The notes under the pieces were generated by a model. The model made no database searches, had not been told where the DNA came from, and saw only the letters and a program-made list of their open reading frames with translations. Below, in pieces: positions 2,781 to 61,700 of a stretch of 64,000 nt of DNA. Source of the stretch: Squalus acanthias (lineage: Eukaryota); contig CM059432.1 of NCBI GenBank assembly GCA_030390025.1, forward strand, positions 99,884,001-99,948,000. The letters run 5' to 3'. The translations under genes were made by a program, and so were the position numbers. Within the stretch, counting starts at the first letter, position 1; each line of letters starts with the position of its first letter.

Positions 2781-4092
2781 GGCGTGCTGCTTGCGTCAAA
2801 GCAATGGGTGCGGGTTAATCGCGCAACGCGATCCCCGCGCCCATTTATCTTTTTAGAAATGATACTTTTGATTATTTGCCTCTCTGAGGAGATTAAATAA
2901 AGTGGTAAGCAAAATTCCATGGGCGTGTAAATTATGCATGGTCTGTTGGGAAGTGCGGACTTGAATGGCTTCTCATCTATATTACAAGTTTAGATTTTGT
3001 GGTACTACTGTGACTGCAGAAGTTATTTAATGCTGCTAATTATTTACTGCTATTAATTATATTGGTACCTCGTTCCCCTTTCATTATGGAAGTTGGTGCT
3101 TGTTGCTTATGCTAATTTCAATCACATCTAAGCTATCATAATAGTCCATATATTATGTCAAATAAATTAGCTTTGTTCATGGACACATACTGTGCTGTGT
3201 CAGTTCCTTGATGTCTCCAAGATAAGACACAAGCTAATTGGTAACTCTTGTTAGGACTGTCGCATATTTCGAGAACTACTAGCTGTGATCTTTATTAATT
3301 GAATTGTTTTAATGTAGGGGTGACTTCAGCTAAAATTATAATTCACCATGTCAATCTTTCCCGCACACATTTGATTGCACTTTCTGAAGAAGAACCTAAT
3401 TATATTTCACCAACTTTTGCTGTGAATCATGAATATATTTCCTACTTGAACTTCTCAAAGAAGAAGCATAACCTGGATTTTCATGTGGATGTTTCTGGCA
3501 GTAAAGTTCAGCAGGTGATTTACACTATTGGCATTGAAACCATATTTGAAACATATTAAAATGTTGCTGCTTTTCAGCTGTTTTACTGCTGAAGAAAAGG
3601 AATATAACACCGAACTGGAAAAAAAACTGCAGTATTCATTAATTGCCTGTCTACCCTTGAAATGCTAGGCAAGCACAAAGCTGAATTCATGGTTCTCTTA
3701 AGGACAAGACTCCAAATGAATGTATGAAAAATAAAAAGCTTATTATTAAAGTATTTGACTGTGGTGATAAGAGCCCCTTTTATTTTCCCTTATCACTATG
3801 GGCATGTTGGGGGTTTTGCCACATGGATGGTGAGCCACTATTACCAGTACTTTTGGTGCAATCAGAAGATAGTTTTATCTGGCAGATGACAAGTACAAAC
3901 ACTGTAAAACCGAATGTTCATTGTTCAGTTCACAATCCATCCTGTGCACATCATTCCCCATTTCCCCACACATCTGCTAACATCTACAAACCTTTCTCTG
4001 TGCACAACAGCTCACTAAGCTCCCATTCATACCACTTGATGAAAGCATTTTCCAAACTTTTTCAAGAACAGTGTCTGCATACTCAAGTTTAA

Positions 4093-6328: not shown

Positions 6329-8110
6329 ACTCAAGTTTAATGTTACTGTAGTTTTGATGATAAACCATATTGTGTGTATGCCTAGTACTTCTTACAGCAG
6401 TGCAACTTTTCGGTGCCAATGTATGAAGGATGTGCTTTCAACCCTAGGCTTATGATTCTCATAGATGCGACCTCAGTGGCAAGAGTGCCTGAGGTAGCTG
6501 GCTGTTATAGGAGGCTTTTAGGATTGAGACAGACCTTGTCTCATGACGGTTAATTCCTGAGAGGGAACTGCTGCAGGCTGCACCTCTTTGGGTAGGCTCG
6601 GGGCTGTGGAGGCAGTGTGCGCCCGAAAACAGAGGCCCGAGGATCTCTAGAAATTGTTCCTCGGGCTTCATCTAAATATTCAAAGTGAGCTACTGCCGCC
6701 TGAGGGAACACTTCAATCTCGAGCCGCCAGCCTTGCCAGCAGTCCTCCGGTAAGTCCCGGGGGGGGGGGGGGGGGGGCGGAAATGGAGGGAGCCAATCGT
6801 GGCCAGCAGTGGCTGGCCAGAGTACTTTGGCTCAACATTTATTCTGCCACTCTTGTGTATCAAAGCAAGGTGGGTCATTTTCTATGATTAAACCTAGCTT
6901 TTAACCCCACATCTGGCAAGACAGAAATAAAGAAGTCAATAACACCATACACCATGCTTCAGTTTTGCCACAGCCTTCCCCTCCACTCTGTAGAATTTGA
7001 TACTCATGAATGCTGATGACATGGTGTTGCTGAGAACAAATCCTATCTGTATTCCTGACGTAAGTGCATCAGCATTTCCATTTTGCATGTCATGGTGGTG
7101 TGGATTGCAAACATTGTATTCTCGCATTGTACCCCCCTGTATCCATCACAACAAATGTGCATTTCTGTCACTAATAAAATGTAACCATGTTGAAGGATTG
7201 TGATCAGAATGCGCAGTAATTGCAATCCCAATTAAATATGCTTGCGACTTCTGCAGAATGCTTAGGCATTCTTTTTCAATTGTTGAATGAATTATTTATC
7301 ATGACAGTAGCTTGTGACTCAGTTATACAATTGTGAATTGTAGCTTAGAATTACAGTTGCCAATATTAGCGAACAAATGTCTAATGTATTAATATGACTT
7401 TTCTCTGCTATTTTAACAGAGATATGAATCTATTTTTTCTGTAACTTAAGATTGTCTCATATTAGATATTCAACTATTAATGTTCAATCTTCAACAGAAT
7501 TGATTCTTTCCAAATGTTTACTTTTATTCTCCATCTGATTTATCCTGGTTTTATGCTTTCTTCCATTCTGCAGTAATATTAATAATCTCTACTATGCATA
7601 GATGCTTTGCAGATAAGCTATAAGATTGCTTCCCATTCCAGGAGCCTTTATTAAACATCCTTTTTGCATATTTTCCCCAATTTTCTCCCCTTTCCTCTCG
7701 TCCTCTTCTAAAGAGCTGTGTCTTGCTGAGGTATGATCCTATGGGTAGCATTAGCCCTTTAGTCACCTTGAATAGCATATTTCACGCATGATCCTTGACG
7801 ACAAGTACCAACCAGCAGGCACTTCCACTGTTAGGGTATCAGAGCCATGCCTGACCCCACCCTCGCCCAACGTTCAGGAATGCACATTTTCCAAAACAGG
7901 CCATTTTCTCTCTTTAGCCCAGGAATGCTGAAGCCCTTATTACTGTTCTGGCTGAGATTAGCTAACTCATCCTAAACTGGGAAGCAAATCGGGAACCACT
8001 AGAGCTGCTTTCATTAAGCTTCTCCGGGAATGCCTTCTCCTCTCTCAAATCAGGTTCCTTTAGAACGTGCCCTGCTGCCAGTGCAGGCTCATAAAATTAC
8101 CTCTTATATA

Positions 8111-11400: not shown

Positions 11401-12119
11401 GTGCTGCAACATTTAGTGGTCTGCAAAAACCACCAAAATTTGCATAATGAGGGGAAGGTAGTGTGAATCTCAGTTAAATCTGGGTTTGAATTTACAATTG
11501 TCCAGTTGAGATCCCTGACATTTTACCACCAGGCATACTGGAGAGGAACTTATTTCTGGTTTAGCCTTTTATTACTACATGCAACTGAAAAGGCAGCAGC
11601 TCTGTTGCTATGTCATGTAACAAAAGATTACTTTGCACATCTTCACCATGGTGTCAATTTGGGCAGCATCCAACACTAGTGTCAAAAAAGCCGTTGTTAA
11701 TATTGTTAAAGTTGAATCATTCCGAATTACCTTCTAACCAGATGTAATTTCACTTTAGAGTGATATTATTGGGAGAATTCCTCGGAGCTGCTCCCGATCC
11801 GCTGGTGTTACTATGCCTGAATTGCAGCAGGAACTCCATGGGGGGAATTTTAACATGGGGGAGCAGGTGGAGGGGTTGAAACCGGGCACTTCCGCATTTC
11901 ACTCCAGTGGGTTAGGCTGCCCTCTCGTCAGAAGCAGGTTGCCTATTAACATATGTTTATCGCTCAATTAGAGCGATATTTCAACACAGTTTTGACTTTA
12001 ATGTCGGATCCATGGGTTTCCTGGGCTTCCTAAAACTTGCTAGTGAAAGCAAGGTGAGAACACAGTGGCAATTGAGGGGGCCGAATCTATCTCATGGAAA
12101 TATTGGAATAAATACTCAG

Positions 12120-12660
12120 TACTCACAGTGTCTCAGGAGGCTCAGGTTGTCACATCAAGTGGTAGCAGACATCTGCAGCCTGCTAGAAGAAGACTTGCTG
12201 GTGGCCATGCTTTACCAGTGGCTGTCAAAGTCACTACCGCCCTCAACTTTTCAGCCTCTGAATCTTTCCACGGCTCTGCTGGAAATATATCTAGGATCTC
12301 CCAGTTGGCTGCCCACAAATGCATAAGACAGGTGACTGATGGCTTGTTTGGCAATGCTGCCAAATATGTTAACTTCGCCTGCAATAATGCCAGTCAGAAT
12401 GAGCAGGCGCTCATGTTTGCTTCTTTGGCTGGCTTCCCACAGGTGCAGGGTGTCATCGACTGCACACACATGGCAACCCCCAGATCAACCTGGAGTTTTT
12501 GTTAACTGCAAGGGCTTCCACTCCATCAATGTGCAGCTGGTGTGCAACCACAAAAAAATCTTTATGCAGGTCTGCACAAGATTCCTGGGGAGCTGCCATG
12601 ATGCTTTTGTCCTGCGGCTGTCCAAGCTCCATGACGTCTTCGGACATGGAAGCAAAGTTA
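12120..12660 (+). pseudogene. Harbinger (HARBI1-like) DDE transposase fragment
   Basis: [30 protein letters not shown] and [29 protein letters not shown] across ORFs 12065..12505 and 12339..12725. Confidence 0.92.
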
Positions 12661-12911
12661 AGACGTGGACTCTCCACTGCTGTATCTGGGACCACCATCT
12701 GCTCTTGCTCACTTGTGAAGTGTAAGTCACCAGGTGAAAACCCAACAATCTCTCTAACTGGTCCCATTGAGGTGTGAGTATCTGAGCTGGTGCATGGTAA
12801 GCATAAGTCCTGTGATGGTGCACCCTCAGAAGGAATCAACAAGTCTGAGGATTCATTGTCCGGGAGGTCCATGAACTCATGCTGAATGCGTGAAGGCCCT
12901 GTCGGAGATAA
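12660..12911 (-). mobile_element. Harbinger accessory-gene exon remnant, convergent with the transposase fragment (internally deleted element)
   Basis: PCTSSDTHTSMGP..TSEQEQMVVPDTAVESPR aligns with PSTSAETHTSVGP..TCEPQQMVETGTALESPR at 24359..24910. Preceded on the minus strand by an acceptor-like ttatctccgacag. Confidence 0.75.
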
Positions 12912-13635
12912 CATTTTCCGAAACAGTTTTTGTGGGGACCAGCCAGCAGAAGGGAGTGCATCCATCTACACAAGCGAGAACATGTCTGTATCCCAAAGAC
13001 GGGGGAAGTGGTCCAATAAAGTCAATAAAGAATTTTCCCTTTGGCTCATCAACTTTCACAGGAGCCAATGATGGTGGCTTAATTAGTGATGACTTATTGG
13101 TTAAATTGCATGGCTCACAATTTGCCACGTATGTTTTACAGGCCTTAAGCATGCCTGGCCACCAATATAAAGGAGTCAATTTGCAGAATGTTGTTCTGGC
13201 ACCACAATGTGCTTGACCTATGCCCTCGTGAGCTTCTTTTGCAAGCTGTTCTCATTTGTGTCTCGGGGGTACTTCTTGGTTTTCTCTTGGGCAACTTAAC
13301 GAGCACAATACCAGTAGGGGTTTCCGAGTAAAAGTACTTTGGTGGATATCCTGGTGGATTCTCTTCTGTTGGGTCTAATAGCTGAATCAGTTCCTCATCC
13401 TGATTAGCTGCCTGTTCTGCCCTAGTGATAACACTAATATTGGCAGGCCCCTCTCGAGGGGGTGTCATGCAGACCGAACATGTTGCTTGTTCGTCTGCAA
13501 GACTGTTTCCTTTTGAGTGTACTGTCCCAGTGGTATGCCCGTTTACATGAATCACCTGACAATTCTGTTTCTCCATTCTTGAATGGAGAATGTCTTCCTA
13601 CAATGACTTATGCCTTATGGCCCTTTTTTTTGTCT
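12912..13635 (-). mobile_element. pol: Endogenous foamy-virus-like (spumaretroviral) pol fragment: RNase H C-terminus plus integrase N-terminal extension, HHCC zinc finger and start of the catalytic core; pseudogenised
   Basis: KKRAIRHKSL*EDI..IHVNGH..HSKGNSLADEQAT; DEELIQLL..GYPPKYFY; after a frameshift [86 protein letters not shown]. Collinear with prototype foamy virus Pol as recalled (DAELDQLL..GYPKQY, LYWWPNMRK, KFFIDYIGPLPPSQGY..VDGMTGFTWLYPTK). Confidence 0.9.
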
Positions 13636-14851
13636 TTTATTGCAGTCTTGCACAGCTATCTATGATTTTTTAAACCCACTCCTCGTGTTTCTAATTTTTT
13701 GTCCCACTTTTTTCTTGGTACTATTTTTAGTGTTGCTCTCATTGTTTCTATTTTGAAATATAGTTCTGCTGTTTTCTTTGGACTTCTTTTCCTTCCTTTT
13801 TTAACTACAACTCTGTTCTTCGTTTTTGCTCCCACTCTCAGCACTGTTCATTTTTTGAGTGTTAGTCCAGCTATTATTTAGTATTGCTCCTGAAATTATT
13901 TTTTAACTATCCATCTCAGTAGTTCTGTTTTGAAGTACAGCTCTCCACTTTACTTTTAACTACAACATCAGCATATGTGTTTCCTTTAATCATCCTCCTA
14001 CTCTGGCATTTTTTTTACTCCCACTGCCATGTTTTTTTAATTACTATTTTGCTGGTTTTTATTCCTAATCTCACTTTTGTGCATTTTTTTCTGACAGCCC
14101 ATAGAATGTTAAACCTCCCAAGACTACCTGTCCAATTTCTAGCTTTCCTCCCTCTATTTTACCTCATACTATAATAACTGCCCTAACTCCCACTTTCCTG
14201 CTTACACTTCACCCCACTAAGAAAGAACTTGCAATTATATAGCATCTTTCACAACCACAGGACATCCCAAAGTGCTTCACAAGCAATGAAGTACTCCAAT
14301 GAAGTGACTGCACAAGGCCAGGGTCAAGGGCACTGGGCAACCACTACCTACCAAGGGTCACCATGTGCTGGAGTTCATACCTGCCATGGGCAAGTGGGTT
14401 CCAGAGATACATCTGAAGTGATGCTTGCATCTACCTGTCCAATGCTAATGAGATGCCCTCCCATTGATCCAACAATTTCCAGTAGGGCCAGTCGTGGAAC
14501 GCACCGGCAGACATGATACCATTGGATTCACAATCCACAGATTTTTGGCTCCAATGTTTTCACTTGCCCAAGTATCTAGGTAAATTTATAGCATGCCCAG
14601 GGATTGAACAGAGAACCCTCTTCAGTTTATTTCAATCACTGGTTTCATCACATGATCTCACATGATGCTCCTGGTCTTTGGAAGAAGCCAGAATAATGCT
14701 GTACTGGAATTTACCTAAGGCTTTATTAAACAGTAAAAGAACAATCGAATAATAGCAGAAAGACAAATAGTTATTAAGCTGAGCTGGCTCATTATAAAAA
14801 TAGAAAATAATGAATAGTCTGCAACCTGTGCTAAACTCTGATATAAATAAC

Positions 14852-15990
14852 GGCCCGGAATTTGCAGTGGGTAATAACGTCAAACCCCTCTGAAACTGAC
14901 CACAACTTCAGGATTTAGCGCATGCGCATCTAAACGCGGAAATCCTGAAGTTGCAGTCATCATTCAACGCTCCGACACTGGTTGCACTGTGGATGCCCTG
15001 CCCCCCACCCGCCCCCATAGCCGTCAATCCGTGTAATCAGTGAAACCAGTGAAAGTGACAAAAATGTGGGCTTTTCCTATGCTAATATCGCTGTTAAATA
15101 CCCCATTAAATGTTAGGCCTTGTTGGAATAGGTGTAACTGGGTTTTTAACAGTGTATTGACTGCCAAACACACATTATGGCCCTGAAAAACTCATTTTTA
15201 TATTTGTCAAATTTCTCCATTATGATAAAAATTTAAATTAAAAAATTATGGGTTTTTTTGTCTTTTAAAAGTTTGTTCATGATATTTCAGGTTCTAGCTT
15301 ATACCCGTGTGAGAGTCCCAGTCTTTGTTTTGCTCTCTGTAACATTTTTAAAAAGTCTGGATAAAAGCAGCTTCTCATTTCCTGGATTCCTGTCTGTGAG
15401 AATTCTGCAATGTGATTGGCTGCTTAGACAACTTGTTGACATCACAGCAGCACCGCGCTAGGAAATCCCATTACAGAGCGCTGAAATCACTTGAACGTCT
15501 AAAAGGGCAGCATGACCCAGGGCCCAGCTGGACCACCAGGGATCGAAGTGCCGGCAAAAGAGCCCGGCACTCAAGAGAAGTGCCGGGCTCAGGGAGCGCA
15601 GCCGGCACTCCACGGGGGAGCTGCAGAGGAGGCCGGGGACGGCAGAGGGGGCAGGTGCTGGCAGGCGGCCAGCAGCAAAAATGGCCGCCCGGCACCTCCC
15701 CTTTAATTTGCACCGCCTCGGCCGCAGGTAGGCCCCCCATACCCCGTCGGACACAACATCTGGCGGTAAGTCGGGGGCGCTACTGAAGATTGCGGTGGGG
15801 GCGCGAGCAGGGCGCTGCGCACGGCAATGATGTCATCGCCAGCGGTGCAGCGCCGCGGGGAACTAACGGTTACCACCACCGCTAACCTCCCACTGAATTT
15901 TGCGGGAGGCGTTGGCGGTGCCGCGCCCGGGCGCTAGTTGCTTTGCGCCCCGTTAGCGCCCCGTTAGCAAAGCAACCGAATTTTTAGGCC
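14852..15990. mobile_element. Non-autonomous Harbinger-like element (MITE)
   Basis: Ends ggcccggaatttg / gaatttttaggcc resemble the other GG..AATT termini here. The left part is similar to 51264-52044 and the right part to ~43720-43800. Confidence 0.7.
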
Positions 15991-23221: not shown

Positions 23222-23479
23222 CCTCTGGATTTTGCCAGCGGAAGCGGGTTCGTTGTTCGGCTGGTTCCGATCCTGCTGCCGGTTTCAGCCGCACTGCGAT
23301 AAGGATTTTGAGTTAACTGGGCTTATTAAGCCCGTCATGCGCATTACCCGGCCCAATCAGTGGCTTCGGGTCTGCTGCTCGCCTCTGCTGACGTCTTCGA
23401 TTCAGCTGCATTTAAGGGGCCCATGCAGCCTTTGGGTTTTATTCACTTTCTGATGCTTCTCAGTGGTATTGTTTGCGAG

Positions 23480-25512
23480 ATGACTACTGCAAGAACCAAG
23501 GCTTCTCCCCGATTTGATGATGACTCCCTCCATGCTCTTGTGGAGGGAGTGAGAGGGCGCAAGGAGGTTCTGTTTCCCTCCAATGGATGTAGGAAGCCTC
23601 CTCAGCAAACCGAGGCAGCCTGGCTGCAAATTGCTGAGGAGGTGAGTGCCAGGTCTTTGTGTTTACGTACCTGGGTTCAGTGTAGGAAAAGGTTCAATGA
23701 TCTGCTAAACTCAGCAAAAGTGAGTATAACATCACACTTACCTTCAATCTGCTCCCCATCTCCTCTCATCACCATCACTCTGCATTGTCAACCTACTCCT
23801 GCACATCCCAACTTAACCTTACATCCCTTGCACCCTTAACCATCCGTCTCTCTCTATGTACAGATTCACTTCACCATTCCGCTATGCACCCCTCACACTC
23901 GCTTTCACTGTTATGCAATGACAACAACTAACAACGCACAGGGAGGGCCCTTGGTATTGGCACCTCACTCCATCTTTGTCTCCCTCTAAGCATCTATGCG
24001 ATGGATTCTCTACACTCACTCCAACATTCTCGCTCAAACTCCACTTGTGTCCCTCAGTGCAGGAAAAGAGAGCCCACAATAAGAGGGAAAGGGGGAGGAC
24101 AGGAGGAGGGCCACCGTCCATGGCGCATTTAACCAACGCTGAGGAGGCAGCTATCGAGATCGTCGGAGGTGCAGAGGAGTTGGAAGTGGGGGACGGAGAG
24201 ATGGGCGCAGTACAGCAAGCTGGTGACAGAATAGATTTGCAACTCTCCCATTTAGATTTCATGAGTGACTGATATGGCATCTGATGTTCATACTGATTGA
24301 GTTCTGATCATCTGCACAATGGGATGTGCCTGCTACGTTAATATCACATGTCTAACTCATGCCTTTACTCCCCCACAGCACCATCGAGAGCCCCCCTCCC
24401 CACTGTCCAGGAGGAAGAGCCGAAGACTCCTCAGAGGAAGCTGCAGCCTCTGAGAGAGCAGCATCAGCAGAGATGAGAGCACCCAGCACCAGTGCAGAGA
24501 CGCACACCTCGGTGGGTCCTTTGCAAGATAGATTAATGTTGTCACCTGATGTAACACAGCTCACATGTGAGCCTCAGCAGATGGTGGAGACAGGGACAGC
24601 ACTGGAAAGTCCTCGTCGGGGGCCGTTGGATGCTCCTAGCTCTGCTCAGCTGCATGTGGATGCTGAGCCTCTGGGGCCATCCAGAAAGAGAGCGGTGCTG
24701 GAGCTTCAGGAACAAGTGCAGGAGGCTCTGACAGGGTTTGCAATCACAGTAACTGCGAGTGGGCAGAGAATGGAGGAGTCCATCTCAAACATGAGCAATG
24801 CCGTGGTGCACGCAATGGTGAATGTAGGTGCCGCCATGGAAAGGATGGCAACCTCCATGGAGGACATAAATCACCAGACGCAGCATCAACATGGTAACTC
24901 TTCTAAATAGATAGTCATTGACATGAATCTTGTCATTCATGTATGAAGTAATACTGGGCGGCCTGCTGGTGGCGCTGTCCAGGGAGAGTATAAATACTCA
25001 GGCATGGGCCCATCTTGCTTAGGACATTCCTCAACAGGAACTAGTGAAGGACACAACTAGATCTCCATGTTGAAAAACAGTTGATTAAAGCTTTGTTTAA
25101 CGCTTAGATCAAGTGCCTAGTAGTTTTCTTACGTCAGTCATCTATGGAGGATAGATGGGCATCTATTGAGGAGAGAAACCAGAGGTGCATGGACGTCCTT
25201 GTTATGAGGAATGTCAGCACAGAAATGGGTCCTCATGGCCCCACTGATGTGCAGCAAGGTGCTCTCCAGCTACTTGCTAGCAGGGAAGTGCGGGTGACCC
25301 ATGAGAGGGATGTTGGTTGTCGACAACAAGGAAGTGTGGGCTCTTCGCCAAGCGCTCACACAACCATGCCACTGCGGAGCCCAAAGGACGGCTGCGATTG
25401 TCGTCTAAGCAGGTGCAGCAGAGAAGTGAGCAAGCTGCCTCTACTTCTGCTGAAGCCACATGGGGAAGCACCAAGTAGAAGCACACGTAAGAGAAAGTTA
25501 ACACACAATTAG
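23480..25512 (+). pseudogene. Harbinger Myb/SANT-like DNA-binding protein gene, 3 exons (23480-23719, 24063-24222, from 24379)
   Basis: PRFDDDSLHALVEGV..AWLQIAEEV..RTWVQCRKRFNDL, then the donor gtgagt; acceptor tgcag before EKRAHNKRERGRTGGGPP. Exon 3 is disrupted by a solo LTR. Confidence 0.85.
24919..25136 (+). mobile_element. Solo LTR (218 bp)
   Basis: Starts TGAC and ends GTCA; 5-bp duplication GTCAT at 24914-24918 and 25137-25141; TATAAATA near 24988 and ATTAAA near 25084. Confidence 0.85.
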
Positions 25513-25798
25513 TCACAAGGATAGTCACAAGGGTGCTTTGATATAATACAAAGTTACGTTTCTCATCGTTATTTCAATTGTATTAAAGAAATGCAATGTC
25601 AAAGATTCAAGGAGTTGGCCTACGTGTGCTCAGAAATGGAAGTTGCACAGTGAGGGGTCAGGACGCCTTTCATCTGTAGTGATGATGGTGAGAGTGATAG
25701 GAATGCACAGTTTATTGTACAGATGCTGTATGGTGTGTTAAGAAGGTCGGCCAGACACTCATTTCCATGTGCCAGCCACATCTGTTTGCTGCGTAAAT

Positions 25799-27028
25799 TT
25801 ACGCGAATCTGGCATGGATTAGTGTATCCCTTGCCTCTCGGCCAGCAATATGCTCGCGAGCTGGTGGAACTGGCACAGCCGCCTCCGCAAGGTCTTCCTC
25901 ATCTGTCGCCTCCTCCTCCTCCTTCTCCTCTTCTGAGGAGGCTGTGCGCTGTGCCACTTGTTCCTCAGGCAGCGGTAAGCCACGCTGCTGTGCGATGCAG
26001 GGCACAGCAGACACGATGATTCTGGAGACCCTGGCTGGTGCATACTGTAGGGCTCCACCAGATCTGTCCAGGCATCTGAATCGCATTTTCAGCAAGCCAA
26101 TGGTTTGCTCTATGATGCTTCTGGTGGAAATGTGGCACTCATTGTAGCGCTCCTCAGGTTCGTTTGATGACCTCCTCATCGGTATCATTAGCCACGTCTT
26201 CAGGGGATAGCCCTTGTCTCCAAGGAGTCATCCGGAAAGTTGGGTTGGTGGATTGAACAGTTGAGGCACAGGATACTGCCGCAGGATGAATGAGTCATGG
26301 CAACTACCAGGGAACTTGGCGCAAAAATGCATAATGTTCTTCCTGTGGTTACACACCAGCTGGACGTTAAGGGAGTGGAAGCCCTTGCGGTTGACAAATA
26401 TAGCTGGGTTGTGATGGGGTGCCCTAATGGCCACATGTGTACAGTCTACGACGCCCTGCACCTTTGGGAAGCCTGCCATATTTGCAAAGCCAACCGCACG
26501 CGCGGTAACACTTGCTTCATCCGTGGAGAAGTGTATGTAATTGTGCGACTTGGCAAATTGGGCATCCGTAACCTGCGTGATGCAACTGTGTGCAGCTGAC
26601 TGGGAAATGCCGCTGATGTCTGCTGCTGATCCCTGGAAGGAACTTGAAACAAAGAATTTGAGTGCAGTGTTAACTTTGACAGCCACTGGTAAGGCGTGCC
26701 CACCCGCTCCTCTGGGCTGCAAGTGTTAGTGCAGCATTGTGCAGATGTCAGCGACTACCTCTCATGAAAGTCTAAGCCTCCTTTGGCACTGCTGCTCAGT
26801 CATGTTGAGGAAGCTCATCCTCGGCCTGTAAACCCTGTGTTGGGGGTATCTCCTGCGGTGAGGTGCAGCCCTGCGCTGACGCCCTCTGCCCTGTGCAGCA
26901 TCAGGTGGCTGAGGAGAAGGTTGGCGCTCCCGTTGTTGCTGCTGCTGTTGTGCCTGCTTCTGCTGCTGCCGCGGCTGCTCTTCCTCCGATTCTGAGGACC
27001 AGGATGAGAGGATATAAATGGTTCCCAT
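25799..27028 (-). pseudogene. Harbinger (HARBI1-like) DDE transposase with in-frame stops
   Basis: [50 protein letters not shown] and [20 protein letters not shown]. Confidence 0.95.
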
Positions 27029-44470: not shown

Positions 44471-45362
44471 TCCCTTCTATAATGCATAGGTTCAACAATA
44501 TTCTAAAGAATTTCACATGTTCACAATGGCTCATTGAGTGTATCCAATGAATAACAGACCAGGAAGGACAAAGGTTCAATCATCTTGCTGTGCTGATTTG
44601 ACTCATCTCAGCTAGGGCTACAGTTGGGGCACTACAATTGGCCTCAGCACCCCTGATTTAGGGAGGGGTTAAAAAAAATGTCAGCTAAAAACTGATTGAG
44701 GTGACGGTGATCCACCCACCACCCCAACCTGCTCCCAGTATAAAATAGCTTGCAAATACCAAATGCCAAGACACAAACATGAGTCCTGGCCACTTGGATG
44801 AGGAACCTAAGGATGACCAGGACCAGTGGAAGACTACCCCAATTCACAGTCAAAGGGGGAAAAATTCAGTACCTTAGCACCTCCCGTTAGCACCAGCAGA
44901 TGGTGCTAACGGGGCACTAGAGCATTATCGCCGGGGCAAGGCGAATCCAACGGCACATGCCAATTCCCGCCTCCCCCCCCCCCATAATGCCGCCGCTAAC
45001 AGTTATCAGCGGGAGCCTCAACGCTATGTGGAGTGTGACATCAGTGAGTGTGCAATATTCGCTGTCCGCCACATCTGCGAAATTGATTGTTGCCACCTAC
45101 CTTAGTGCCTGGAGTAAACAGTGACAGGGAGAGCTGGCGTAAAGCAGCAGGAAGGCGGCTCCAGGGATGTTATTTAAAGGGATCATCAGTAATGAGTTGC
45201 AGCTGTAGCTTAGTGGAGTTCCAGTGCTTTCTTGTCAGTTTCACATAGAGCAACAGTCTCATTCCGTAATTTCAAGGTTATTTAGTGTCAGGAGTGTTGT
45301 GGCAACTAAAAAGTAGCTAAATTTATTCATTAAAAAATCAAACTGCCACACTTGGTTACATT

Positions 45363-46501
45363 AATGGGGGCTGTAATGGCAGTCGACCTCGCCCTCCAGG
45401 ATCTATGGCAGACGGAGCGGATGCAGCGAGAAATGGGAGGAGGAGGGCCATCAGGGCTCTCAACCGGAGACCATACCCTCCAAGGGTATTCCGAGAGAAC
45501 TTCTCCTACCTCCAATTAAGCGAGGAGCATTGTATTACAAGGCTCCGCTTCACCAAGGAGGTGGTCGCAGAAATCTGCCACCTCCTGCAACCAGACCTTC
45601 AGTCTCAGGGCGACCACAGCTCTCTCAGTGTCAGTCAAGGTCACCGTCGACCTCAATTTCTTCGCTAGCAGGTCCTTCCAGTCTGCAACAGGAGACATAG
45701 CTAACATCTCACAGTTCGCCATCCATTGCTGCATCCGGGAGGTCACAGAGGCTCTCTACAGTAGGAGAAGGGACTATATTTCCTTCCCTATCAGAGAGAA
45801 GCAGGACGAGCATGGTTGTGGCTTTGTCAGGATAGCGGTATTCCCCATGGTGCAGGGCACCACATAACAATCCTGAGATCTTCCGTAACCGCAAAGGCTA
45901 CCACTCACTTAATGTCCAGTTGGTGTGCGACCACAGACAGCTAATCCTCAATATCAATGCCCGCTTTCCTGGCAGCAGCTACGATGTCTTCATCCTGCAC
46001 CAGACTGGTGTGCCAGCACTCTTCCAGCCATCACGTCAAGTTCGCGGCTAGCTGGTCGGAAACTAGGGCTTTCTGGTCTCCATCTGGCTCATGACTCCCC
46101 GCCGCAACCCCAACACTCCTGCCCAGCACTCATATAATGAGAGCCATGCCGTCACCAGGAATATCATTGAGCAGATCATCAGGGTGCTCAAGCAATGGTT
46201 CCACTGTCTTGACCCCTCGGGAGGAGCCCTCCAGTACTCGGTTGAGCGGGTGTCACATTTCGTGATGGTCTGCTGCATGCTCCACAACCTGGCCATCATG
46301 ATGGCCCAGCCCTTGCCACCAGGGATTGCGGGACCACCTCAGGAGGAGGAAGAAGGCGAGGAGGAGGAGGAGGACGAGGAGGAAGAGGAAGATGAGGAGG
46401 ACGAGGGGGAGGAGGAACAGGAGCGAGTGAGGTGGCAGTCACTCAATCGGCCTTCCGGAAGGGCGGTCCGTGACCGTTGCATCAGACTGCAGTTTGAATG
46501 A
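45363..46501 (+). pseudogene. Harbinger DDE transposase, frameshifted
   Basis: RPYPPRVFRE..CITRLRFTKEVVAEICHLLQ, VKVTVDLNFFASRSFQ, TRNIIEQIIRVLKQWFHCLD..CCMLHNLA and an acidic tail. Confidence 0.92.
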
Positions 46502-46666
46502 ATTAAACTCCAGATTCCCGTTGCTCACCACATTCCCAATTTTCCATCCCTGTCGCAGGCCATATCACAGTGCAAAGCTGAAATGAGACACAACACAAAA
46601 GAATCCAAACTGAATTAATAAATTTATCAAAAATCAGTGAACACACATTTGCAACAAAAATATTAA

Positions 46667-49600
46667 CTATTCACTCTTGTGCAATCCCTTAGTACCTCTT
46701 GTTACTGTGCCTTTGCCTACTCTAGTGCTCCTACGAAGTGTTGGCCCAGTGGCTGCAGCATGGCTGGTGGAAGGCTGCTGAGTGTCCATGCGGGAGACCT
46801 CAGATGGCCTTGCAGGACACCCTTGACCAGCTCTGGACCTGGAGCCCTGGCCTAGACTGCACCACCTCAGCATGGGCGGCAGCAGTCTGGGCTGGCTGGA
46901 TGACGGGCAGCGACAAGAGCAATGGCGGAGTGTCAGTGGTGGGAGCAGGAATGTTTTTATCCTGCAATGGAAGCTGCCAGATCATCCATCACACGTGGCA
47001 TGAGGTCTGGGTTTGGGTTGCCACGGTCTCTCTGGGACTCTACCATCCTTTGCAGACTGGAAATGATGGGCTCCATGGTGTGCGTAGAGTCTTGTGAAAT
47101 GTTGGAGGCGAACTCCTCCACACTCCTTATCATTGCCGAGAGGCTCTCGGGCACCCTTGCCATTGCACCTATCATCTCTGTGTGCATGCCCATCACCCTT
47201 CTTCTAAACGCCTCCCCATCAAGGTCCTGTGCAGCAGAACTGACGCGCGAACTCGCCCTCCAGGGATCTTGCCCTAGAGCTACCCTTTCCCCCTGGCCTT
47301 GCTGCAGCCCATTCGCCCCCAGTGCCTCACCCTGTGCAGATCCTGCTACTATACTAGCCTCTAAAGAACGCGTAGTGCCAGTATCTGAGCTGGTGCCTGC
47401 GGGTGAGACATGTAGTGACGTGGTGTGTGCTTCTTCCTCCTCTTCTCCCGCCTCGCTCTCTCCAGTGCTTTCAGGGACAGGCTGCTCAGGTGCTTGCTCA
47501 TTATCTGAAAGCATAAAGGCACGAGAGTTGGGTTAAGGTGAGCGGAGGGGGGCAGGAAGGGAGAAATGCATGCATACAGCATGATTAGCTGGAACGTGCA
47601 AACGCTTGTGGGGTGAGGGGGAAATGGGATGTGAGAAGAAGGAGCAGAGATGAACGGCGCCCACCACCAGGTGCCCAATAATCTGCAGCACTCGATTCTC
47701 CAGCGCAGACAGTGGTTGGGTGTCAGCTTGTCCCCCACCTGTACCCTCCTGCTCCTTCCTGTTGTGAACCTCCTTGGCCTGCAAGAGAAAGGAAAGTGTG
47801 TGAGTGAGTGTGAGCACTGTTTGGGTGATGTGCCTGCCATAGTTGAATAGCTCTCATTGTGTGCAAGGTGTGAGATGTGGGTGTGAGTGTTGGTAGGTAG
47901 AGGTTGTTGGTGGGTGAGTGCTGGGGGTGTGGTGCTTTGGGCAGTGTGTGCAGACTGAGGTTCAGATGGTGGTATGTATCATTTGTTGAAGCATTGACTC
48001 ACCCTGACCACCCGAGTGAGGTCGTTAAATTTCTTCCTGCACTGTGTGTGGGTCCTGGGGACCACAGTGCTGCCCGAGACGTGCTGTGCTACCTCCCTCC
48101 ACATGGCGTGGAAGACTTGCAGCAAGGGCCTCCTGCCACTTGCTGGGTACATAAGATCAATGGCTGATCGTCTGCCTCAATTCCATTCACCGGCCCTATC
48201 GCCATATCCCTTGATGCCTTTACTAGTCAGAAATCCATCGACTTCTGTTTTGAATATACCCAATGATTGAGCCTCCACATCCCTCTGGGGCAGAGAATTC
48301 CAAAGATTCACCACCCTCGGTGTGAAGAAATTTCTTCTCATCTCAGTCCTGAATGGCCTACCCTTTATCCTGAGGCCGTGGCCCCTGGTTCTAGACTCCC
48401 CAGCCAAGGGAAACATTCTCCCAGCATCCCTGTAATAATCAAGCTCTGTAATAATTTTGTATGCTTCAATGAATCCCTTCTCATTTTCTGAATTCAAGAG
48501 AATACAGGCCTAGTTTACTCAATCTTTTCTCATACGACAGTCCCGCCATCCCAGGAATCAATCTTGTGAACCTTTGTTGCACTCCCTCTATGGCAAGTAT
48601 ATCCTTTCTTAGGTAAAGAGACCAAAATTGTACACAGTACTCCAGGTGTGGTCTCACCAAGGCCCTATATAATTGGAGTAAGACTTCTTCACTCCTGTAC
48701 TCAAATCCGCTTGTAATGAAGGCCAGCATACTATTTGCCTTCCTAATGGCTTGCTGCACCTGCACATTCACTTTCAGTGACTCATGTACAAGGACACCCA
48801 GGTCCCTTTAAGCATCTGCATTCCCCAATCTTTCACCATTTAGGAAATACTCTGCCTTTTTGTTTTTTCTAGCGAAGTGGATAACTTTACATTTATCCAC
48901 ATTATATTCCATCTGCAATGTTCTCGCCCACTCACTGAGCCTGTCGAGATCCCCTTGAAGCCTCTTCACATCCTCTTCACAACTGACACTGCCACCTCGC
49001 TTTGTATCATCAGCAAATTTGGAAATGTTACATTTAGTCCCCTCATCCAAATCATTGATATAGATTGTGAATAGCTGGGGCCCAAGCACCGATCTTTGCG
49101 GTACCCCACTAGTCATAGCCTGCCATCCTGAAAAAGACCCGTTTATCCCTACTCTTTGTTTTCTGTCTGTTAACCAATTCTCAATCCATGCTAGTATATT
49201 ACCCCCAATTCCATTTGCCCTCATTTTGTTCTTGTGTGGGACTTTATCGAAGGCCTTCTGAAAATCCAGATACACCACATCTACCGGTTCCCCTTTGTCT
49301 ACTCCACTAGTTACATCCTCAAAGAACTCCAATAGGTTTGTCAAACAGGATTTCCCTTTCATAAATCCATGTTGACTCTGCCCAATCTTACTATTAGTTT
49401 CTAAGTGCCCAGTTATTGCACCCTTTATAATAGATTCCAGTATTTTCCCAACTACTGATGTGAGGCTAACAGGTCTGTAGTTCCCTGTTTTCTCTCTGCC
49501 TCCTTTCTTAAATAGCGGGATTACATTTGCTATCCTCCAATCTGCAGGAACCGTTCCAGAATCTATAGAATTTTGGAAGATGACAACCAATGCGTCCACT

Positions 49601-56502: not shown

Positions 56503-56575
56503 GGGGACGGTAGCATAGTGGTAATGTCACTGGGCTTATAATCCAGAGACCGTGAGTTCAAATCCCACCACGGCA
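56503..56575 (+). promoter_or_regulatory. tRNA-derived internal RNA polymerase III (type 2) promoter at the head of a LINE
   Basis: A box TAGCATAGTGG (56511-56521) and B box GAGTTCAAATCCC (56554-56566). D-arm, anticodon arm CTGGG-CTTATAA-TCCAG and T-arm GTGAG-TTCAAAT-CCCAC are recognisable; the acceptor stem is unpaired. Confidence 0.85.
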
Positions 56576-59917: not shown

Positions 59918-61700
59918 TCATAGGAACATAGGAACAGGGCTAGGCCATTCAGCCTCTCAAGCCTGTTGTGCCATTCAATAGATCATTGTTGATCTGTACC
60001 TCAACTCCATTTACACGCCTTTGCTCCATATCCCTTGATACCCTTACCTAACAAAAATCTATTGATCGCAGTCTTGAAAATTTCAATTGAGCCCCAGCAT
60101 CCACAGCCTTTTTGGGGGAGAGAGTTCCAGATTTCCACTACCCTTTGTGTGAAAAAGTGCTTCCTGATTTCATTCCTAAACGGCCTAGCTCTAATTTGAA
60201 GATTATGCCCACGTATTTCTGGACTCCCCCATCAGAGGAAATAGTTTCTCTGTATCTAACTTATCGAATCCCTTAATGAATTTCATTACCTTGATTACGT
60301 CACCCCTCAACCTTCGAAACTCAAGGGAATACAGGCCAAGTTTATGCAACCTGTTGTCATCATTTAACACTTTATGCAATGTTTCCTTTAAATTGCATAA
60401 AGTGTGGTCTGCAGCTCCTGCCCAGCCAGCTCACCGGCTTTTAAATAGGAAAAACCACGCGTGCGCGGTATTTTGAATGGGCCCCGCACCCCAAAAAAAA
60501 TTAACAGGAGCATTGCCTTTAAGTCCTTGTATTACTATGGCGAATCTGCGCTGTATCCCTTTCAAAGTCAATGGGTCATAATTTGCGGCTCCTACGGGTG
60601 CATACGAGGTGTGTACGCAGCCGTAGGGGCCGCACAAGTTCCGGGTTTAGGCATGCACTGTGCGCATCCCCAGGACAGATCGCACGCATCCCCGAGAAAA
60701 GGGCATCCGCGGGCGGAGAGTTGGGCTATTTGCCCAACTTCTGCCCAGCGAATGCCCGTGAAATTCTTACGTCTGGTAAAAGCGTAAGGCCTGCTTTTAC
60801 TAGCATAAGAGATTTAAAAAAGCTGAAAAATAAAATTTTATCAATAATTTATACATTTAAAAACTTGTAAGTTTATTTTTAGCCCCTTTAAAACATGTAA
60901 ATTTATTTTTTCAAAAAATTTAGTTTTTGTTTTAAATATTTAATTAAATGGCATTTTAATTAATTTTAACTATGATTTTTTTTTTAATTTGATGTCTCGG
61001 TGTATTTTTTGGGGTATTCCCATTCATACTTATGGGGTTTCCATACATACAGAATCCCGATAAGTATGAATGGGGATTCCCTTCTGTCATTCGTAGGGCT
61101 GGCCCACGTGATCCCAGGGTGCATGCGAATCACTTGCGCCCCTGGGATACGTGGGCCTCTTCCCGTGGGTTCCCGGAGAGCCCCAGGACCGCGAGTCTCC
61201 GTGGGTCCTGAGGCCCCAGGTACGCGGGCATTTTATTTGCGGATCGGAGGCATTTCCCCGTGGGAAGCCAATATATAATTTCTGAGCTTCAGTGCTCAAA
61301 ATTGAACGCAGTATTCCAGATGGGGTCTGACCAAGGCTCTGTACAACTGAAGCATCACTTCCTCATTTTTAAATGCCAATCCCCTTGAGATAAAGACCAA
61401 CATTCCATTAGCCTTTTTGATTACTTTTTATATATCTGCACTTGCTTTTAGTGATTTTTCCTCCAGCTCTAGTCACTCACCATTTAAAAAATATTCTGAT
61501 TTGTCTTTCTTAGATCCAAAGTGGATGACCTCATACTTCCCCACATTGAACTCCATCTGCCAAAATTTTGCCGACTCACTTCATCTGTCTGTGTTCCTTT
61601 GAAACTTCCTGCTCCTGTGTGAACTACTTACTGTGCCTCCCAACTTAGTATCTTCTGCAAGCTTTGATATACAACTCTCTTTTCCTTCATCCAAGTCATT
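59918..61700 (-). mobile_element. Fragmented CR1 3' region interrupted by other insertions
   Basis: Reverse-complement CR1 tail at ~59920-60360, KGIQRRFAIVIQGL at ~60500-60565 and RT fragments at 61285-61700. Confidence 0.8.
60573..61272. mobile_element. MITE family B relative, opposite orientation to 52939-53648
   Basis: Shares ggcccacgtgatcccaggg..ccctgggatac and an internal attcata..tatgaat hairpin. The right end is uncertain. Confidence 0.7.

Follow-up and report, generated by a model that had tools for sequence, protein, structure and literature searches.

The literature describes both exogenous and endogenous relatives of the element reported here. The integrase of prototype foamy virus (PFV) carries an N-terminal extension (NED; PMC8149907), and endogenous foamy-like sequences have been described in amphibians (foamy-like ERVs; bioRxiv 2020.12.18.423569), in the coelacanth (CoeEFV; PMC3386198) and in chondrichthyans, for which elephant shark CmiFLERV (PMC5512871) and catshark ERV-Spuma.0-Sca (PMC10699275) have been published. 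Catshark elements are reported to number 293, with ERV-Spuma.0-Sca clustering with teleost elements (PMC10699275), and 2,843 clade III RT loci have been counted in six chondrichthyan genomes (PMC11089739). Among foamy integrases, those of tetrapods and the coelacanth have been separated from those of fish, CoeEFV belonging to tetrapod integrase group II (PMC7947760). Further literature also entered our comparison (PMC6001957; PMC5499810; PMC8227577; bioRxiv 2021.11.23.469661; PMC5210030).

We analyzed a 64,000-nucleotide stretch of DNA, here called the window, and found a retroviral pol piece on its minus strand, running from ~13,619 to 12,912 (~707 nt, ~235 codons). This piece, which lacks the RT by whose monophyly with foamy viruses FLERVs are defined (PMC5512871), matches foamy viruses best. 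We read it as the likely deletion-whittled remnant of a provirus from a foamy-like ERV family, likely of about a thousand copies and likely in a cartilaginous-fish lineage, and we put the probability of this reading at roughly 0.88.

In minus-strand order, the translations give an RNase H end, then DEELIQLL..GYPPKY, then an HHCC finger and then [22 protein letters not shown]. One reading frame holds the RNase H end and a linker containing DEELIQLL and GYPPKY; the HHCC finger and the first part of the integrase core are read in a second. The C-terminal ~42 codons of a PF00075-type RNase H, with the His and last Asp motifs, occupy 13,493-13,619 (minus strand); they are identified by tblastn with foamy and foamy-like Pol and by a weak Pfam RNase_H match under the cut-off (E 0.006), and their upper border is set by orthologous flank. 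The RNase H-integrase linker and the NED follow at 13,234-13,492 (minus strand), recognized by the G(Y/F)P motif in a census described below. Beyond them lie the HHCC zinc finger with H-x6-H spacing at 13,108-13,233 (minus strand; Pfam Integrase_H2C2, E 4.5e-14) and the beginning of the integrase catalytic core at 12,913-13,107 (minus strand), which retains the invariant D77 and aligns with PFV integrase residues 67-168 (E 2.4e-27). Protein matches span 13,633 to ~12,901-12,886; in two related organisms, B and C, the alignment of orthologous flank begins at 13,620 and extends upward, and the top ~15 nt of the interval 12,912-13,635 delimited by the initial annotation is therefore probably host flank. 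All the features that this annotation had listed (RNase H end, extension, HHCC finger, two stops, one frameshift, and their order) were borne out, on a strand, minus, that it had left unstated.

The two stops lie at 13,600-13,598, in the RNase H end, and at 13,254-13,252, in the linker/NED segment, which also contains the frameshift, between ~13,291 and 13,273, where the tblastn matches of relatives switch frame. Of the D,D(35)E triad, the piece keeps one residue, the first Asp (13,023-13,021), and no further integrase matches were found anywhere in the 64-kb window. Because of its two stops, its frameshift and the loss of two of the three catalytic residues, the piece cannot encode a working enzyme; it is dead, non-coding debris. 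Geckos have co-opted foamy genes (PMC6669660), a precedent for a domesticated viral gene, but the stops, the frameshift and the truncated core speak against domestication here, and an assembly artefact is countered by the upper junction, which is present in a second individual of the same organism and missing in close relatives. Either explanation is already largely refuted, and we give the pair almost no weight.

We searched the PDB with the integrase half of the fragment and recovered, besides PFV integrase, Ty3 at E 1.2e-5, with no other retroviral integrase among the matches listed at E<=1; the RNase H/NED half alone gave no match. Across 1.84 billion protein representatives, the top match was a protein of Spea bombifrons, and the best single-stretch matches were from Spea, feline foamy virus Pol, Pleurodeles, bat foamy virus, Pelodytes and a 1,687-aa Gag-Pol, P0041. 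Several long multi-stretch proteins also ranked high by summed score in this search, at ~30% identity. With its lesions translated as X, the fragment was compared with 59 reference rows, and the 22 with the best E-values were all foamy or foamy-like. In these searches, foamy and foamy-like Pol sequences are the best matches of the fragment.

P0041, encoded on an 11-kb contig, joins a Gag-like part, protease, RT, RNase H and a foamy-type integrase in a single frame; it is a foamy-like element whose gag and pol are apparently fused. Five Pleurodeles proteins (P0006, P0013, P0015, P0026, P0027) show a foamy-type RNase H end and NED despite the UniRef name "Gypsy retrotransposon integrase-like", and are probably mislabelled products of foamy-like ERVs. 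Null results came from word-indexed protein searches, which found no close relative (1/43 candidates, Gypsy-like), from those for P0041 (2/2,002 and 10/1,642), and from a metagenome scan whose 51 loci were all distant (best segments 26-44%, save one 21-residue match). An ESM Atlas search with the RNase H/NED half led, at 0.89-0.93, to clusters that are either unnamed or of RNase H/H2C2 type, which is no more than a lead.

Reference genomes covered foamy, lenti, beta, gamma, delta, epsilon-like and SnRV-like groups, labelled by primer site, RT motif and clustering. A tRNA-His primer scan found no retrovirus, so WDSV-type epsilon viruses are represented by L073 only; ERV-L, lokiretrovirus, teleost FLERV, CmiFLERV and CoeEFV sequences stood outside the alignments. 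Against group profiles, the RNase H plus NED half scored 51 bits for amphibian/P0041 sequences, 34.5 for mammalian foamy viruses, 17 for gamma/epsilon and 0 for Gypsy. At E<0.01 it matched nine representatives out of 150, every one of them foamy or foamy-like; a further 91 have 110 aa or more of upstream sequence, and it matched none of these. We take RNase H plus NED to be the discriminating half of the fragment, judging by these sequence comparisons.

The integrase half scored 126 bits on the Gypsy profile, whose set is biased in that its members were picked for matching the fragment, versus 120-123 bits on the foamy profiles. This score could suggest an element that is not foamy-like at all but belongs to Ty3/Gypsy, the lokiretroviruses or an Odin-like group and has a second RNase H, and lokiretrovirus and foamy RNase H are reported to cluster together (PMC7947760). 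The upstream half argues otherwise: an RNase H of the retroviral second type (PF00075), although weak in Pfam, directly precedes the integrase with 34.5-51 bits on foamy profiles and 0 on Gypsy, and a Gypsy RNase H (PF17917) region scored 0 bits there. Moreover, the lokiretrovirus integrase is described as CGIN1-like (PMC7947760), and the Loki sequences in that paper's supplement, compared by eye only, differ from the fragment in RNase H end, linker and core motifs; Odin lay outside the comparison. We regard this alternative as very improbable.

Membership in a gamma/epsilon, SnRV-like or ERV-L retrovirus group appears slightly less probable still. Gamma- and epsilon-type integrases likewise bear an N-terminal extension, their RNase H-to-finger distance is alike (52-87 residues in gamma/epsilon rows), and the elephant shark is reported to have epsilon- and SnRV-like ERVs (PMC4422223). 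Yet the G(Y/F)P motif, present in 12/12 foamy rows and in all eight foamy-like rows that cover it, occurs in none of seven gamma/epsilon/SnRV-like rows. Across finger and core, the fragment is identical to those rows at 20-27 of 107 positions versus 34-51 of 107 for foamy and foamy-like rows, and in the X-translated comparison with the reference rows the bit scores are 27-39 versus 87-149, ERV-L being outside this comparison.

In all three trees of the RNase H/integrase region, the fragment fell on the foamy side (SH-aLRT 81; 74/96; 84/83). The first was a quick 60-row tree; the smaller trees drop 39 and 36 of the 60 rows for run time, the 39-row drop also because Gypsy, lenti, beta and delta rows are without a homologous upstream region. 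The second tree paired the fragment with P0041 at a support of 63/39, and no starred branch contains the fragment. In AU tests, grouping with Gypsy was not rejected (p 0.09), which lends the Gypsy alternative some support, nor were groupings with gamma/epsilon/SnRV-like rows (p 0.14, 0.24, 0.19), a constraint that merely shifts the outgroup onto the fragment's branch. An exclusive clade of the fragment and eight mammalian foamy rows was weakly rejected (p 0.043), a result confounded by anuran rows. In the phylogenetic check suggested by the initial annotation, the fragment is thus on the foamy side in every tree, at moderate support, with no starred branch and with AU p values of 0.09-0.24 against the alternatives. 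Overall, the claim of a foamy-virus-like pol is supported by the PDB and representatives searches, the profiles, the G(Y/F)P motif and the identity counts, while the tree tests alone reject no alternative.

The same annotation had read the finger as H-x6-H, longer than the H-x3-H that it gave for PFV, and had taken the spacing to indicate a distinct lineage. Our spacing census confirms the reading of the finger, but not its meaning. H-x6-H is found in 9/9 scorable foamy-like rows (amphibian, bat and unnamed) and in two of 12 exogenous foamy genomes, L068 and L085, which have RNase H motifs in common with the bovine and equine sequences in the supplement of PMC7947760. Among Gypsy rows, 11 of 20 have it, a frequency compatible with a Gypsy origin as well. 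This occurrence across foamy-like, exogenous foamy and Gypsy rows rules it out as a distinct-lineage marker. H-x3-H looks like a derived state of most mammalian foamy viruses, and the tempting shortcut of delimiting foamy lineages by the His-His finger spacing is corrected.

Around the fragment, the 64-kb window contains no gag, protease, RT, env, PBS, LTR pair or bracketing direct repeat (70 retroviral ORF queries gave 37 matches, none elsewhere at E<0.01). Further hallmarks of foamy viruses, namely a tRNA-Lys PBS, a Gag lacking the Cys-His box, a foamy Env and accessory genes, are likewise absent from it. The integrase end abuts an internally deleted Harbinger DNA-transposon remnant at 12,047-12,912, with its transposase piece on the plus strand and its Myb-ORF piece on the minus strand (DDE_Tnp_4, E 3e-9; 66-68% match to the Harbinger copy at 24,425-26,791). 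The remnant aligns with that copy over 12,108-12,855 with a ~1.6-kb gap, and its last ~55 nt are unaligned. On the other side lies a single-copy, A-rich host flank at 13,620-14,218, identified by contig alignment in organisms B and C; it is ~45-55% A on the minus strand, has no Pfam match and may be a very old LINE remnant. Next to it, at 14,219-14,295, is a short repeat of very high depth with loose ends in all four sequencing runs aligned below, which resembles the tail of an L2-partner SINE.

Parts of positions 12,000-15,000 were found in 20 runs from at least seven organisms, with no RNA dataset among the runs listed. We aligned contigs of four of these runs (organisms A-D) at 80% likeness. 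In organism A, a contig derived from a second study spans the upper junction, reaching 36 letters into the viral piece, with a flank difference of 0.6%. The junction is absent from the related organisms B and C (flank difference 4.0%): there, single-copy contigs cease to match at 13,620 and run on into 694 further letters absent from the listed window matches. The lower junction has no bridging contig among those listed for the four runs. Of the orthologous-locus comparison that the initial annotation had recommended for dating, the upper junction is thus documented, in a second individual of A and by its absence in B and C, while the lower remains unbridged among the contigs listed.

The 4% flank difference between A and B/C corresponds to ~40 or ~90 Myr by the rate assumed, either 0.5e-9 (PMC10699275) or the 0.033 per 75 Myr implied by PMC4422223. 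The upper junction is likely younger than the separation from B and C, ~40-90 Myr ago by rate, or was lost in B and C. Several related organisms differ by 4-5%, which argues against a coelacanth host; the occurrence of parts of the locus in seven related organisms does not fit such a host either.

Relative to single-copy depth, the pol piece reached 883-1,098 in A (X5), 2,597-2,840 in B (X6), 2,865-3,079 in C (X8) and 794-1,058 in D (X9); as summed contig depth is not copy number, we take from these values the order of magnitude alone. The family is likely on the order of 10^3 copies in size. The initial annotation had called endogenous foamy-like elements in fishes rare, a description that fails here, at ~800-3,100x single-copy depth in four organisms. 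In the adjoining Harbinger sequence the depth is 28-50x, versus ~800-3,100x for the pol piece; the family was therefore not amplified as Harbinger cargo, and we reject such cargo as the source of the high copy number.

These observations would fit germ-line invasion by an ancestral foamy-like virus, which then multiplied through reverse transcription and insertions made by its integrase; one of the resulting copies would have ended up beside or within the Harbinger remnant. Deletions would then have removed everything upstream of mid-RNase H, together with some flank, and all that lay downstream of the integrase core start. A competing account, which we consider a substantial minority possibility, accepts the virus but holds that no provirus ever stood here: the piece would have been captured at a double-strand break, its source being cDNA or another copy, or Harbinger would have brought it in. 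The fragment begins and ends inside pol with neither an LTR nor a PBS nearby, and the 694 other single-copy letters in B and C beyond the upper junction mean that flank may have gone in the same event, all of which this account would explain. Against it, the junctions show no convincing microhomology or duplication (best 6-7 nt), the Harbinger depth falls far below that of pol, and the 1.6-kb internal deletion of the Harbinger remnant points to a deletion-prone locus. As the way in which the piece was stranded, we therefore favor deletion, with modest confidence; capture at a DNA break seems rather unlikely, and carriage by Harbinger improbable.

The remainder of the window holds a mix of transposons (CR1 with a GDSL ORF1, Penelope-like, L2-tailed SINE and Harbinger), a mix that we take to resemble that of shark genomes. 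Harbinger elements with Myb/SANT and DDE_Tnp_4 ORFs lie at 23,330-26,800, 45,300-47,900 and 2,100-2,800, and the depth of their transposase family is ~5,000-12,000x single copy. A decayed Gypsy-type RNase H piece at 6,981-7,322 (minus strand; RT_RNaseH E 2e-4, tblastn E 4e-7) is separate from the foamy-like piece. Positions 843-1,690 form a GA-rich microsatellite array of ~800 bp, and the sole Rfam match is tRNA-like (56,510-56,569, plus strand, 38 bits), possibly a SINE head. Pfam searches of 245 ORFs from non-repeat regions of the window gave no credible host exon; an MBD match at 61,133-61,288 was rejected as one, being below the Pfam cut-off and having no PDB match. Looking up 10 ORFs of the window by exact sequence, as a guide to the host class, gave 0 matches.

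The initial annotation had proposed that the fragment would be a paleovirological marker if its host or lineage were unreported. The host class is probably not new (PMC5512871; PMC10699275), and this family may be. Judged by its sequence, it may be undescribed: it is set apart from the catshark element by eye, the integrases of CmiFLERV and CoeEFV being outside the comparison. No paper on a high-copy shark family with a tetrapod/coelacanth-type integrase was found in the literature searched, which did not extend to subscription journals. A bolder proposal, which we hold only tentatively and consider doubtful, is that a shark lineage hosts a multi-species foamy-like family of ~10^3 copies, with a tetrapod/coelacanth-type integrase, that would be a marine relative of CoeEFV and unlike the published shark elements. 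If true, cartilaginous fish would harbor a "true foamy" Pol, a finding that would call into question the proposed land-therapsid origin of the coelacanth virus, which PMC5512871 argues came to coelacanths from land animals. The scrap is in this sense a pointer: a high-copy family with this integrase type in several related, probably shark, species would make the claims of PMC7947760 and PMC5512871 testable with many datable copies.

Compared with known systems, the fragment differs from catshark ERV-Spuma.0-Sca, as published in PMC10699275 and viewed by eye over about half of each line, in its RNase H end and core, and that element has a short RNase H-to-finger gap. By eye, CoeEFV (PMC7947760 supplement row) agrees with the fragment in 17 of the 21 residues of a block that surrounds the RNase H His/Asp motifs and was picked after viewing, versus at most 13 of 21 in 27 reference rows; before that block 1 of 21 residues agree, giving 18/42 overall versus 17/42 for P0041, and the CoeEFV integrase lay outside the comparison. 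This likeness is a weak lead, not a result. Amphibian endogenous foamy viruses (Spea, Pelodytes, Pleurodeles; kin of ERV-Spuma-Smu and PwaFLERV) share H-x6-H, the NED and the best RNase H plus NED profile (51 bits), at 29-37% identity and with no supported sister relation to the fragment. Exogenous foamy viruses (PFV/SFV, FFV, bovine, equine and bat Molossus foamy virus, of the Spumaretrovirinae) show the same domain order, a NED with G(Y/F)P and the same core motifs, with 42-51 of 107 residues identical in finger and core and 32-38% identity over the whole piece; L068, L085 and the bat virus also share its H-x6-H finger, whereas the fragment is a dead endogenous piece. Within the published split of foamy integrases, the integrase of the fragment looks like the tetrapod/coelacanth type.
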